The notes under the pieces are model-generated. The model was not told where the DNA came from. It did no database searches and saw only the letters and a program-made list of their open reading frames with translations. Positions 2,650 to 11,169 of a stretch of 64,000 nucleotides of DNA are shown here, piece after piece. Each line of letters starts with the position of its first letter. The first letter of the stretch is position 1. The DNA is taken from the NCBI RefSeq assembly GCF_000027125.1, contig NC_017626.1; one strand, 5' to 3'. The stretch comes from Escherichia coli 042. GTDB lineage: Bacteria > Pseudomonadota > Gammaproteobacteria > Enterobacterales > Enterobacteriaceae. The translations under genes and the position numbers were made by a program.

Positions 2650-2943
2650 TTATTGATTATCAACAGGAAGAAAAGAAACCAAACGCACCCCATCCAAATC
2701 CACCGGAATACGTCTATTTTCACCCCAGGTCTGAAATTCAAAACCCGACTCGGTATTGGTCGCCCAGGCCATTACCACATTTCCGCAACCTGCCAGTTGA
2801 GAGATTTGCTGCCAGATCATCTCCCGAATACGTTTGGACGTATCTCCGACATAAACACCGGCACGCACTTCCAGGAGCCAGATCGCGAGCCGTCCACGTA
2901 AGCGCGGAGGGACATTTTCTGTAACAACGACGACCATACTCAT
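2650..2943 (-). CDS. cas2: CRISPR-associated endoribonuclease Cas2 (type I-E)
   Basis: 97 aa, [33 protein letters not shown]... matches the Cas2/YgbF family; 4-bp overlap with cas1. Confidence 0.93.
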
Positions 2944-3863
2944 CCGCCGCGTCCCCGGTGACCGCTATCGCCCAGCGTTTCAGGTTCAGGGATGGCAGGC
3001 GGTAACATATCCGGCGCGGGTTGTGGTGGTTCAATTTCACCTGCGGCAAGCACTTCCTCGATTAACGGAATTAATTTGCCCGTTAACTTACTGCTACGGA
3101 AAATATCACGACAGGCCAACCTGACTTCTTTATCTGGTTCTGCGGGTTGCCTCGCTGCTATTTCAAATGCCTTTGGCACAACCGAATCAAATTTAATGAT
3201 ATCGGCTATGTCATAAACAAATGAAAGCGGTTTGCCACTATGGATAAATCCAATAGCGGGCGCATATCCCGCGGCTAATACTGCCGCTTCAGAAATACCG
3301 TACAGACATGATGTGGCAGCACTGATGCAGCGATTCACAACATCGCCTTTTTCCCAGTCTTTAGGATCGTATTTGCGACCATTCCATTTCACACCATATT
3401 GTTTCGCCAGTAATGCATACGTCTGGCGAACGCGGGATCCCTCAATTCCACGTAGCTGCTCCACTGAACGGCGAGCTGGCGGTGGCTCACGAAAACGTAA
3501 TTCATACATTTTGCGCACCACCTTCAGACGTAGATCTTCCGTTAAAGCCAGCTTTGCCTGGTAGAGTAACTTATCAGCACGCGCCCCACCGGGTTGTCCG
3601 GAAGAGTAGACGCGAACACCCGCTTCACCGACCCAGACCAGTAGCGTCCCCACCGTGGCGGCCAGATGCACCGCCGCGTGGGAAACTCTCGTTCCCGGTT
3701 CGAGCATAATGCAGGCGACCGATCCCACCGGAATGTGCGTGCGGATCCCGGTTTTGTCGATCAGCACGAAAGCGCCGTCCAGTACGTCGATTTGACCGTA
3801 CTGGAGGAAGATCATAGAGGTGCGATCTTTTAACGGGATCGGACTCAGTGGTACAAACGTCAC
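2940..3863 (-). CDS. cas1: CRISPR-associated integrase Cas1 (type I-E)
   Basis: 307 aa, [48 protein letters not shown]... is the Cas1/YgbT family signature; overlapping stop/start with casE. Confidence 0.95.
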
Positions 3864-4510
3864 GCCTCTGCTCCGGGTTTGATCAGCATCAGACCACAGC
3901 CGAACGCGCGGCTTTTGCCATACCCCTGGCTCAGACGTTGCAGAAATAACCCAGGATCGGTGACCGTAAGCATCCCCGTATAATCCACGCTACAGAACTG
4001 GATCAGTTGCCGGGAGTTTTCCCGCCGCAGTTGCTGTTGTCGGTAGGCATCGACCGAGGTATCCAGTAGTGTAAAACCGCTTCTTTCCCCCTGCGCTGCC
4101 AGCCAGTCCAGCGCCGCCTGTTGTTGATGCAACCAGACATCACGCCCTTCCGCCTGCCCCCTCACCTGCCGTTTCGCCTCTATCAGCAGATCGTGGCGCT
4201 TACCCGCTTTACAGACTGTTGGATTCGCCCGCAGGTTGAAACAAAGGGATTGTCCGGTACGCAGCTCCGGCGCAAATGACCGGCATTCGATGGTGAACGT
4301 ATCACTTTCCGCCGGGCGTTCCTGCGACAGGACAAAAAAGCGAAACGCGCCCTGGAGTTCTTCCCGACGATAAAGAAATTGCCTTTCTTTGCCACCCGGG
4401 AAAAGATCCCACAGCCACTGATGCATCACATATTCACCGCGATCCACCAGATGCAGCAACTGCGCAGGCGAAAGCTGGCCGGTATGTAAGGTTATTCTTG
4501 AGAGGTACAT
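3860..4510 (-). CDS. casE: Cas6e / CasE (Cse3) crRNA endoribonuclease
   Basis: Track ORF 3860..4648; I place the start at the internal Met (MYLSRITLH..., about 4510), which is preceded by AGGAGG. C-terminal glycine-rich segment GCGLMLIK typical of Cas6e. Confidence 0.85.
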   Translation of the reverse strand: MYLSRITLHTGQLSPAQLLHLVDRGEYVMHQWLWDLFPGGKERQFLYRREELQGAFRFFVLSQERPAESDTFTIECRSFAPELRTGQSLCFNLRANPTVCKAGKRHDLLIEAKRQVRGQAEGRDVWLHQQQAALDWLAAQGERSGFTLLDTSVDAYRQQQLRRENSRQLIQFCSVDYTGMLTVTDPGLFLQRLSQGYGKSRAFGCGLMLIKPGAEA

Positions 4511-8414: not shown

Positions 8415-8511
8415 ACGCATCCTCTCGTAAAAAAGACCATCCCAGGTCGGTTGTCCATCATTCCATCCTTTTGGGTGTATCAACTATTCAGAGAGCCCTG
8501 TCGCAGGCATC

Positions 8512-11169
8512 TCAACCAACCTTGCCAGTCAATCCTTCCATAGCCGAATACCCGCAACTTTCGTCATCGGTGACTAAAATCACGTTTGCCATCTCCGGAT
8601 CTTGCCGCTGTTCAATGCACCACTGCCTGAACGCATCCCCTTCCAGTAAAGAAAACTCATCCCGATGTTTTTTCCACCAGCTTCGACGCACTCTGACAAC
8701 GCTCATTTCCCATGCGTGAGCACCGGTGGCATAAGGCTTCACCACACCGTCAATACAGGTAGCCAGCCACAGGGAAACAGATTCCTCAGCCAGACGTGTC
8801 GACAGCTTTTCCGGAAGGTAATCGTTGATATTGGCGGCATAGCCAGGCTTGAAGTTCAGGACAAACTTTTTAGCCATTGCGCGATCGCAGTAATATTTGC
8901 CCACTTGCTCCTGCTCACTGCGGGCAAATCCTTCCGGCATTGCCACGTCTTCACCGTAGACTGATTCAATAAGAAGCCGGGCTGCGTGTGGCATCTGAAT
9001 AGCGCCTTGCTCACGCAGCACACGCTGCGTCAGCCAGATTCGCCCATGATCGGGGTAGACATATGCACTGTTACGCATGGCGCTGCCAAACCATTCGTCA
9101 CCCGGAGAGTCATCCCAGACGGGAGCCAGAATCAGCAATTCAGGAGGGGAACGCTCATCTTTTCCGTCACGCTTTAACTGACCATTAATATCGCGGATAT
9201 GCCGCTGTAATCGCCCCGCCCGCTGGATTAGCAAATCAATGTGGGCCAGGTCGGAGATCATTTCGTCCAGGTCACAATCGACGCTCTGCTCTAATACCTG
9301 AGTACAAATAAGGACTTTTCCGGCACGCTGTGAGTTACCTTCTTTACCAAAGCGTGCCAGCGTTTCCGTTTCAATTCGCTGGCGATCGCTAAAAGCAAAG
9401 CGGCTATGAAAAAGTGAAAGGCTGGAAGCGGGAATGACGCCGCGGGCAAGCAGCTGACGATGAACCTTAATAGCGTCATCGACAGAATTCCGGATCCAGG
9501 CGATGCATTTCCCCTGACTTACCGCCGATTCGATATGTGCAATACATTCTTGTTCGCTATGAAGCCAACCCACACACACGTTGCGCTCAACTTCTTTGCG
9601 CGTCGCTACCCGGTGCGAATGCAAATCGGATTTCGTGACATGCGTCAGCCATGGGTAATCATCCTTTTCAAGGAACGGAGCTTCTTGTTGGCCCTCTGCA
9701 CCACGCGCAAAGGCAGCGACGAGTTTGTCGCGCTGCTGTTGAGATAACGTAGCAGAAAGCAAAATGATACTGTTTCCGCCACGCGCCTGCCGCTCAATCA
9801 ATCCTTCAAGAATGCACGACATGTAAGCGTCACAGGCATGGATCTCATCAGCCAGCAGGATTTTTTTACTCAACCCCAGAAGCCGCAGATTATTATGTTT
9901 GAACGGCATCACCGCCATCATCGCCTGATCCAAGGTGCCGACGCCAATTTCAGCCAGCAACGCCTTCTTGTTACTGTCGGCAAACCAGGCCGCACATCCC
10001 TGGCTGAACGCTTGTTCATCCGGTTCTTCTGACCCGACTAAATCACCGGACCAGAGTGATTCATTGAAGCGGTCCATTAATGTATGGGCACTGTGTGCCA
10101 GCACCAGGCTGGGGCGGGATTCTGGCGAATAGAAAGCAAGCCAGGTTTTGACCAGCCGATCGTACATGGCATTGGCCGTTGCCATTGTTGGCAGGCCAAA
10201 AAACAAACCCTGAGCTTTCCCCGCAGCCATCAACCTGTGGACCATGATAAGCGCTGCTTCTGTTTTACCTGCGCCAGTCACATCCTCCAGAATAAATAAC
10301 TGTGGCCCAGGCTGGCTGATATCCAGATCCAGTACCTTTTGCTGTAACGGTGTCGGGTGCTCAATAAAAGGAAACAGTGTATTAATTCCGGTGAAAGGCG
10401 CGGTTTGTGCTTTTGGAGGAAAGACGGTTAAGGCGTTTTGAGCCTGAACTAAAGCCTTCTGCCAGTAATCTTTAATATCCATTGCCTGTGCAACGCGTGG
10501 AAAAAACCGCGTTGACGATCCCGTCCAGTCTGCGAGTACGACGGTTGCAGAGATATACCAGGAAAGTTGTTTTATAAGTTCAACGCCCTCGTCATCATCC
10601 CAGAATGTGGGGATCTCGATGAGCGGGAACAGTGTCTTGATTGCAAGGAGAAAATCTCGTGCGGCAGCTTTGTCTTCAGGCAGAAAATTATCCAGTTCAT
10701 CCATACGATCAGGAGGCTGACCATGATGCCCGGTAGTCATGGGCATCCACATCTCTATTACCCGTTTAAGTTTGCGGGGAGAGAGTGAAGATGAAGGAAG
10801 CAACTCTTCACATTCAATTAAATAATGATTCCACAACCAGTAGCCCAGCGTTGAATGAGAGATCTTTTCGTAATTTTTTCTTGCACTTTCCGGAACCTTG
10901 AGCTGTGGGTGCAGGTAAAGTTGCTGAAAAGAGCGGGCAAATTTTCCAGTATCGTGCCAACACAGCAACCAGGCGAAAAATTGTGCTGCCTGCTCCGTGT
11001 CAGCGATACCTAATTGACGAAAATAGTCAGCCAACCCGAAACAGTTGTTTTTGACCATTAAATAACCCGTCGCGGCTACATCCAGCGAATGCCAGCAAAG
11101 TAGATGATAGTCGTCGCCGCCCTCTTTCTCGCCACGTCGGGTTTTTCCCCAGAAATCAAAGAAAGTCAC
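8512..11169 (-). CDS. cas3: Cas3 helicase-nuclease (HD domain + DEAD/DEAH helicase), type I-E
   Basis: 885 aa; N-terminal HD motif (HSLDVA...H), helicase motif I (GAGKTEA), DExH-like LADEIH, motif VI QRAGRLQR. Confidence 0.93.
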   Translation of the reverse strand: MTFFDFWGKTRRGEKEGGDDYHLLCWHSLDVAATGYLMVKNNCFGLADYFRQLGIADTEQAAQFFAWLLCWHDTGKFARSFQQLYLHPQLKVPESARKNYEKISHSTLGYWLWNHYLIECEELLPSSSLSPRKLKRVIEMWMPMTTGHHGQPPDRMDELDNFLPEDKAAARDFLLAIKTLFPLIEIPTFWDDDEGVELIKQLSWYISATVVLADWTGSSTRFFPRVAQAMDIKDYWQKALVQAQNALTVFPPKAQTAPFTGINTLFPFIEHPTPLQQKVLDLDISQPGPQLFILEDVTGAGKTEAALIMVHRLMAAGKAQGLFFGLPTMATANAMYDRLVKTWLAFYSPESRPSLVLAHSAHTLMDRFNESLWSGDLVGSEEPDEQAFSQGCAAWFADSNKKALLAEIGVGTLDQAMMAVMPFKHNNLRLLGLSKKILLADEIHACDAYMSCILEGLIERQARGGNSIILLSATLSQQQRDKLVAAFARGAEGQQEAPFLEKDDYPWLTHVTKSDLHSHRVATRKEVERNVCVGWLHSEQECIAHIESAVSQGKCIAWIRNSVDDAIKVHRQLLARGVIPASSLSLFHSRFAFSDRQRIETETLARFGKEGNSQRAGKVLICTQVLEQSVDCDLDEMISDLAHIDLLIQRAGRLQRHIRDINGQLKRDGKDERSPPELLILAPVWDDSPGDEWFGSAMRNSAYVYPDHGRIWLTQRVLREQGAIQMPHAARLLIESVYGEDVAMPEGFARSEQEQVGKYYCDRAMAKKFVLNFKPGYAANINDYLPEKLSTRLAEESVSLWLATCIDGVVKPYATGAHAWEMSVVRVRRSWWKKHRDEFSLLEGDAFRQWCIEQRQDPEMANVILVTDDESCGYSAMEGLTGKVG

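Follow-up and report, generated by a model that had tools for sequence, protein, structure and literature searches.

The CRISPR-Cas locus between the housekeeping genes iap and cysH was analyzed in a stretch of 64,000 nucleotides (nt) from Escherichia coli 042 (contig NC_017626.1), which is referred to as the window. Eight intact minus-strand type I-E cas genes fill positions 2650-11169 in the order cas3-cse1-cse2-cas7e-cas5e-cas6e-cas1-cas2 and are followed by a leader and a CRISPR array. The locus is very probably an intact type I-E system of the E1 variant, the same as the O157:H7-type cas-EO and as 'var. B-8552', which is ancestral at the iap-cysH site in the Enterobacteriaceae and was later replaced by the E2 cassette in the lineage of E. 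coli K-12. The variant has already been described and the locus is an ordinary one of the E. coli majority type.

A complete type I-E cas operon

All positions are given in window numbering. The genes of the operon and the one longer intergenic region are as follows.

2650-2943, minus strand: cas2e, 97 amino acids (aa); TIGR01873, 131.6 bits
2940-3863, minus strand: cas1e, 307 aa from a GTG start; TIGR03638, 380.9 bits
3860-4510, minus strand: cas6e/casE, pre-crRNA (CRISPR RNA precursor) endoribonuclease, 216 aa; TIGR01907, 283.7 bits, model positions 1-207 of 208
4492-5238, minus strand: cas5e/casD, 248 aa; TIGR01868, 160.6 bits
5249-6304, minus strand: cas7e/casC, Cascade backbone subunit, 351 aa; TIGR01869, 444.6 bits
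6319-6855, minus strand: cse2/casB, 178 aa; TIGR02548, 101.8 bits (cut-off 28.5)
6852-8414, minus strand: cse1/casA, large Cascade subunit that reads the protospacer-adjacent motif (PAM), 520 aa; TIGR02547, 613.4 bits (cut-off 70), model positions 1-504 of 504
8415-8511, minus strand: cas3-cse1 intergenic region, 97 nt
8512-11169, minus strand: cas3, HD nuclease fused to a helicase, 885 aa counted from the GTG at 11169; TIGR01596 (HD) 84.8 bits, TIGR01587 (helicase core) 208.2 bits

All eight open reading frames match type I-E NCBIfam models at essentially full length and above the curated cut-offs. Overlaps of 4 nt join cas1 and cas2 (ATGA), cas6e and cas1 (GTGA) and cse1 and cse2 (ATGA), and cas5e and cas6e share 19 nt (4492-4510). 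The remaining genes are separated by 14 nt (cse2-cas7e), 10 nt (cas7e-cas5e) and 97 nt (cas3-cse1), and a Shine-Dalgarno-like motif lies ahead of each of the eight starts. An earlier sequence-only reading of this DNA had described a complete operon with overlaps at the same four junctions (4 bp at cas1/cas2 and about 19 bp at casD/casE), which is in agreement with the coordinates and the NCBIfam matches.

Alignment with the K-12 proteins verified that the catalytic residues are kept in Cas1 (E141, H208, D218 and D221) and that H30 of Cas6e corresponds to the catalytic H20 of K-12. The Cas3 motifs H72/D73/K76, the Walker A lysine K302 and D441-E442-x-H444 are kept as well. Single alignments to the Salmonella and Citrobacter orthologues span 96-100%, and none of the eight genes is truncated or frameshifted. 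The locus thus shows the Cse1 and Cse2 signatures, the Cas7e/Cas5e/Cas6e order, a single-polypeptide HD-DExH Cas3, Cas1e and Cas2e, and an adjacent array with leader that define type I-E.

Divergence from the E. coli K-12 cassette

The MG1655 locus was used as the K-12 reference, and identities were determined by BLASTP and by global alignment.

Cas3: 28% by BLASTP, 31% global
Cse1: 21% by BLASTP, 25% global
Cse2 against CasB: no BLASTP hit, 26% global
Cas7e: 30% by BLASTP, 33% global
Cas5e: 36% by BLASTP, 38% global
Cas6e: 27% by BLASTP, 31% global
Cas1: 85% by BLASTP, 85% global
Cas2: 85% by BLASTP, 85% global
Flanking proteins, BLASTP: Iap 98.8%, CysH 99.6%

The sequence-only reading had described Cas3, Cse1, Cse2 and Cas6e as far removed from K-12 and the housekeeping flanks as K-12-like. 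Both statements hold, with 21-31% identity for these four proteins, no BLASTP hit for Cse2 and near-identical Iap and CysH, and the K-12 Cas proteins are clearly not matched at >95% identity. Its list of four divergent proteins was correct as far as it went but incomplete, as Cas7e and Cas5e are equally divergent and Cas1 and Cas2 are clearly not of the K-12 kind. At the DNA level, the identity to K-12 is 71% for cas2-cas1 and 96-98% for the flanks, while no homology to K-12 was detectable between 3851 and 11557 and megablast gave no match to the K-12 cassette. The scores for the K-12-specific models stayed below the cut-offs, with 108 bits for NF007247 (CasA; cut-off 576) and 423 bits for NF007248 (Cas3; cut-off 569). 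The cassette of the window is not the K-12-type cas-E2 (cas-EK). Its G+C content of 51.6% is close to the 50.5% of the whole window, compared with 44.8% for the K-12 cassette.

The two systems are nevertheless alike in subtype, in their eight genes and gene order, in the iap-cysH site, in 32-nt spacers, in a nearly identical repeat and in the catalytic residues. K-12 differs in a cas3-cse1 gap of 414 nt (97 nt in the window), in repeats that end in AACTC (AACAC in the window) and in the absence of the hok coding sequence that is present in the window. Spacers are acquired with a CTT motif in K-12 and with a CWT motif in the non-K-12 variant (PMC3737337).

The E1 variant in the literature and in E. 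coli genomes

Two variants were distinguished by Díez-Villaseñor in 2013: cas-EK of K-12 with a T-type repeat and leader and the CTT motif, and cas-EO of O157:H7 with an A-type repeat and leader and the CWT motif (PMC3737337). Spacer acquisition by the cas-EO Cas1-Cas2 proteins with the CWT motif was demonstrated experimentally in the same study (PMC3737337). In 2014 Almendros described E1 as the majority variant with 53.5% G+C, grouping with Salmonella and E. albertii, and E2 as the variant of K-12, some phylogroup A strains and E. fergusonii with 45.6% G+C; it was concluded that E2 took the place of E1 in a minor group of strains (PMC3903273). The clustering of the Cas proteins with those of Salmonella and E. 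albertii, a G+C content above that of E2 and the type-A repeats place the locus of the window in E1. Moreover, seven of the eight gene lengths (294, 924, 651, 747, 1056, 537 and 1563 nt) equal those listed for var. B-8552 in a 2025 survey (PMC12736100), the exception being cas3 with its different start.

Among 5,426 complete E. coli genomes, the window-type segment was found in 2,411 (at least 80% of a 10-kb segment) and the K-12-type cassette in 1,114 (at least 80% of the cassette), so that the window type is about twice as frequent; approximately 1,900 genomes carry neither type complete. Other E1 cassettes of E. coli share the gene order, the type-A repeats, the hok gene between cas3 and cysH and a G+C content of approximately 51-53%, and their proteins are 92-100% identical to those of the window. 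They differ in allelic detail only, with DNA identities of mostly 91-97% in a mosaic pattern, and in cas3, which is annotated with 2,700 nt in other E1 strains and spans 2,658 nt from the GTG in the window owing to one extra T.

Distribution across genera and the direction of replacement

In a scan of one genome per species, the cassette was found in seven further species: E. albertii, Intestinirhabdus alba, Klebsiella indica, K. grimontii, Citrobacter youngae, Salmonella enterica subsp. diarizonae and Phytobacter ursingii. The six genomes outside Escherichia all have cas3 immediately downstream of cysI-cysH. On the far side of the array, iap is present in Intestinirhabdus, Salmonella, K. grimontii and Phytobacter as well as in E. 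albertii, and cysH adjoins the cassette in C. youngae and K. indica. Identities between the window and the six non-Escherichia genomes are 93-96% for Cas1, 89-94% for Cas2, 84-87% for Cas7e, 77-81% for Cas5e, 75-85% for Cse2, 74-77% for Cas6e, 72-76% for Cse1 and 69-72% for Cas3, next to 89-93% for CysH and 93-96% for CysI in the flank. Over the Cas proteins as a set, the range is 92-99% for E. albertii and 69-96% for Salmonella. The type I-E loci of Salmonella, Citrobacter, Klebsiella, Intestinirhabdus and Phytobacter are orthologous cassettes with genus-level divergence, and the fall-off in identity across genera fits vertical descent.

All E1 cassettes lie at the same distance from the K-12 Cas proteins (Cas1 83-85%, Cas3 28-31%), and the housekeeping flanks of K-12 follow the species tree. 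Because of the conserved synteny, the G+C content, this equidistance and a relic at the trailer end of the K-12 array, the replacement appears to have taken place in the K-12 lineage. The cassette replacement that had been proposed from the sequence alone did occur, but not in the lineage of this strain, which that reading had treated as the variant. The reverse direction, in which the K-12 cassette is original and the lineage of E. coli 042 imported a foreign and perhaps Salmonella-like cassette, would explain the K-12-like flanks around non-K-12 cas genes, and the region from cysH to ygcE, 96.3% identical to K-12 compared with about 98% elsewhere in the window, might be the trace of a larger import. 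Such an import is extremely unlikely and largely refuted, given that the cassette is syntenic across several genera, that its G+C content fits the genome and that of the K-12 cassette does not, and that the K-12 Cas proteins form the outgroup to all E1 cassettes. Identity to Salmonella is only 69-96%, far below that of a recent import, the window type is the more frequent one in E. coli, the K-12 array keeps a type-A repeat at its trailer end, and an import into the E1 strains is opposite to the polarity concluded in PMC3903273.

It could also be imagined that only the interference module from cas3 to cas6e was swapped and that cas1-cas2, the leader and the repeats were inherited vertically in both variants. 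The 85% identity of Cas1 and Cas2 to K-12, compared with 21-38% for the other proteins, speaks for such a partial exchange, as do repeats that differ by 1-2 nt and leaders that can be aligned. Yet cas1-cas2 DNA is far more diverged from K-12 than the flanks (71% against 96-98%), and all E1 Cas1 proteins share 83-85% identity with the K-12 Cas1 but 93-99% with one another across genera, which places K-12 cas1-cas2 outside the E1 clade. A separate swap of the interference genes is also not needed, because Cas1 and Cas3 have diverged in a ratio of approximately 1:5, within E1 across genera as well as between the two variants, as for a cassette that diverged as one unit. The partial exchange is accordingly rated very improbable, and replacement of the whole cassette in the K-12 lineage is preferred.

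Boundaries of the exchanged segment

Toward iap, the degenerate trailer repeat and the first spacer are common to K-12 and the window, with 2 mismatches (about 3670-3730 of the K-12 locus and 2098-2187 of the window), and the trailer-most full repeat of K-12 ends in AACAC, which is the A type of the window. The shared trailer spacer and the one type-A repeat place the left breakpoint inside the array, so that K-12 retains the remnant of an array of E1 type. Toward cysH, homology to K-12 sets in again at 11557, at the start of an intact hok gene. In an evolutionary reading of these boundaries, E2 would be a later whole-cassette replacement that begins within the array and stops just before sokX. 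The features upstream of cas3 are listed below.

11170-11406, minus strand: AT-rich region upstream of cas3, approximately 39% G+C, including a run of four T residues; presumed regulatory role
11407-11559, minus strand: hok toxin gene, 50 aa; Pfam HOK_GEF, E = 5.7e-10
11544-11701, minus strand: sok/hok leader; Rfam sok RF01794, 109.6 bits

The hok/sok pair sits between cysH and cas3, and K-12 keeps sokX only, its hok coding sequence having been lost at the cassette boundary. No hok gene was detected between cysH and cas3 in the six non-Escherichia genomes by tblastn, for which the query was in a shifted frame and matches show DNA conservation only.

Beyond the cassette, the segment 11557-29623, which runs from cysH to queE between both CRISPR loci, is 94-96% identical to K-12, compared with about 98% at 33-64 kb. 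This divergence may reflect hitchhiking with the cassette exchange or a region that is hot for recombination.

CRISPR arrays, leader and spacers

Three arrays of the same repeat family and one leader are present in the window.

2098-2553, minus strand (leader side): CRISPR2.1, a degenerate trailer repeat followed by 7 full 29-nt repeats with 32-nt spacers
2554-2649, minus strand: AT-rich CRISPR leader of 96 nt between cas2 and the first repeat, alignable to the K-12 leader but diverged
27666-27755, plus strand: CRISPR2.2, 2 degenerate repeats
28258-28408, plus strand: CRISPR2.3, 3 repeats and 2 spacers

The CRISPR2.1 repeat is of type A, reads CGGTTTATCCCCGCTG[A/G]CGCGGGGAACAC and recurs with a 61-nt period; no such repeat matches are expected by chance. 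All seven window repeats end in AACAC (type A, …GGGGAACAC), compared with an AACTC end in 12 of the 13 repeats found in K-12. The leader would likewise be of the A type, as judged only by its divergence from the K-12 leader; a pairing of leader and type-A repeat has been reported for the non-K-12 cas variant (PMC3737337). An Rfam scan of the window returned sok and CsrB only and no CRISPR repeat family.

Two spacers match the P1/P7 phage-plasmids over their full length. The leader-proximal spacer (2493-2524) matches phage P1/RCS47 at 32 of 32 positions, and its protospacer CAAAGGACACCGGGAGGCACCCGGCACCGCAG is followed by the canonical motif CTT. The spacer at 2188-2219 matches phage P7/SJ46, also at 32 of 32 positions. 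For spacers s3-s6, the phage search gave no match and the plasmid search only one of 27/30 at E = 0.5. An apparent similarity between spacers, suggested by a 122-nt period in Tandem Repeats Finder, was rejected by inspection, as identical repeats and GC-rich spacers account for this period. CRISPR2.2 and CRISPR2.3 are presumably served by the same Cas set. The CRISPR2.3 repeats end in AACTC, the 'T' type that is tied to K-12-type cas genes, although the cas genes of this strain and its CRISPR2.1 belong to the 'A' type.

The cas3 start and the functional state of the operon

Several observations weigh against an intact and working system. The closest complete genome is that of strain CB6837, whose cas genes are 100% identical to the window in all 500-nt windows but one (99.8%), and the NCBI Prokaryotic Genome Annotation Pipeline (PGAP) labels its cas3 (9330-12030 of the CB6837 locus, L002) as "frameshifted". 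E. coli strains with an annotated 899-aa Cas3 begin at an ATG 42 nt (14 codons) upstream of the window GTG, and alignment of the cas3 5' regions revealed TTTT in the window and in CB6837 against TTT in the 899-aa strains, which puts the upstream ATG out of frame. A simple consensus promoter scan was uninformative, as sites resembling promoters were less frequent than in shuffled sequence and none lay upstream of cas3 or cse1. Behind the P7 protospacer, the sequence reads CAG and not CTT or CAT. The array carries three leader-end spacers beyond those of CB6837, but s6 and s7 occur at 100% in many other complete E. coli genomes (s5 alone was not found) and so give no sign of recent acquisition. 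Recent acquisition of these spacers was for this reason rejected, as loss in CB6837 or array recombination explains the difference equally well. Expression and activity of the operon in this strain are, furthermore, inferred, and for interference and spacer acquisition the two perfect P1/P7 spacer matches, one of them with CTT, are indirect support only. E. coli type I-E systems are typically silenced by H-NS.

The strongest form of this objection is that the operon is decaying, that cas3 is a pseudogene as annotated by PGAP in CB6837 and that interference is lost. In addition to the PGAP label and the shared T4 run, truly damaged cas3 genes are present in other E1 strains, with a frameshift in XJ6.1 and an internal stop in 00_3305. 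The T4 run (near 11190, within 11170-11212) breaks only the 14-codon ATG extension, and the TTTT instead of TTT in this extension is the cause of the frameshift call in CB6837. Cas3 orthologues of E. albertii, Intestinirhabdus, Klebsiella indica, Citrobacter youngae, Salmonella diarizonae and Phytobacter, and thus of six genera, start at the homologous GTG or TTG and have an in-frame stop just upstream. The GTG-start Cas3 covers the HD model completely (1-178 of 178) and the K-12 model from position 6 onwards, an AAGGA motif lies approximately 10 nt upstream of the GTG, and there are no internal stops in the 885 codons. Decay of the operon is therefore considered very unlikely. The 14-codon extension would be an annotation choice and cas3 appears intact from its GTG, in line with an intact E1 locus. 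Because the orthologues of these six genera start at the downstream GTG or TTG, the annotated ATG start of cas3 in many E. coli records is probably wrong.

Expected mechanism and structural relatives

The mechanism is expected to be that established for type I-E systems. Cas6e would cut the array transcript inside each repeat hairpin, and the crRNA would be bound by Cascade, composed of Cse1, Cse2, Cas7e, Cas5e and Cas6e. After the PAM is read by Cse1, an R-loop would form and Cas3, with its fused HD nuclease and DExH helicase, would be recruited to degrade the target. New 32-nt spacers would be placed by Cas1-Cas2 at the leader-proximal repeat.

A search of the PDB with Cas7e, Cse1, Cse2, Cas6e and Cas3 identified one close solved relative, chain E of 9UER, which is about 84% identical to Cas7e and thus at the same level as Salmonella. 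Only remote solved relatives were found for Cse1, Cse2, Cas6e and Cas3, including a weak match of Cse2 to the Thermus Cse2 (2ZCA). The Cascade and Cas3 structures of Thermobifida fusca (5U07, 6C66 and 4QQW) represent the same subtype and domain architecture but come from another phylum and show remote sequence similarity only. The window Cas7e nevertheless scores better against the T. fusca Cse4 (E = 3e-46) than against the K-12 CasC (E = 7e-29). This closer score to the T. fusca protein than to that of K-12 points to a deep split between E1 and E2.

Variation within E1

The E1 cassettes are mosaic. Compared with XJ6.1, the window is approximately 100% identical in cas1 and cse2 and 93-97% identical in the neighbouring genes. 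Other E. coli E1 cassettes are 91-100% identical to the window DNA and the E. albertii cassette is 91-97% identical. E1 alleles within E. coli thus differ by 3-9% in DNA, about as much as from E. albertii, compared with approximately 2% between the distal part of the window and K-12. This mosaic variation is in line with the finding by Almendros et al. that E1 alleles recombine (PMC3903273). It is the one aspect of the locus in which something not yet published could be hidden. One such reading would be a long-lived, Escherichia-wide polymorphism kept by selection on Cascade and Cas3 (for example by anti-CRISPRs) in place of neutral recombination, together with a 97-nt gap that makes the eight genes a single unit regulated unlike that of K-12; as a whole, this reading is unlikely.

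Other observations in the window and in other assemblies

Apart from the CRISPR region, a LemA-family gene followed by three TPM-domain (YgcG-like) genes with glycine- and serine-rich C-termini was found at 29591-33162, where K-12 has yqcG and ygcG only, a difference of 3.4 kb. The gudP-yqcA intergenic region (48442-48502) contains three perfect tandem copies of the 20-nt sequence CACCGCTAAAACGGCATTTA, which is present in K-12 as one copy with one mismatch. One small RNA gene was matched in full length and is present as in K-12.

50139-50498, minus strand: CsrB small RNA; Rfam, 383.9 bits

Two species-representative assemblies of other organisms contain closely similar sequence. A Pseudocitrobacter vendiensis contig (L016) encodes CysI, CysH and Cas3 with 93-99% aa identity to the window, and a contig of a Collinsella metagenome-assembled genome (L015) encodes Cse1, Cas7e, Cas1 and Cas3 with 95-100% identity. 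This E. coli-like sequence is most likely due to contamination or mis-binning and not to transfer.

Implications

Automated annotation can falsely mark the cas3 gene of this sub-lineage as a frameshifted pseudogene by using an upstream start that is not shared by other genera. Nearly all type I-E biochemistry has K-12 as its model, whose cassette is of the minority type and was acquired later. In most E. coli, and in this strain too, the Cascade and Cas3 proteins are only 21-38% identical to those of K-12.

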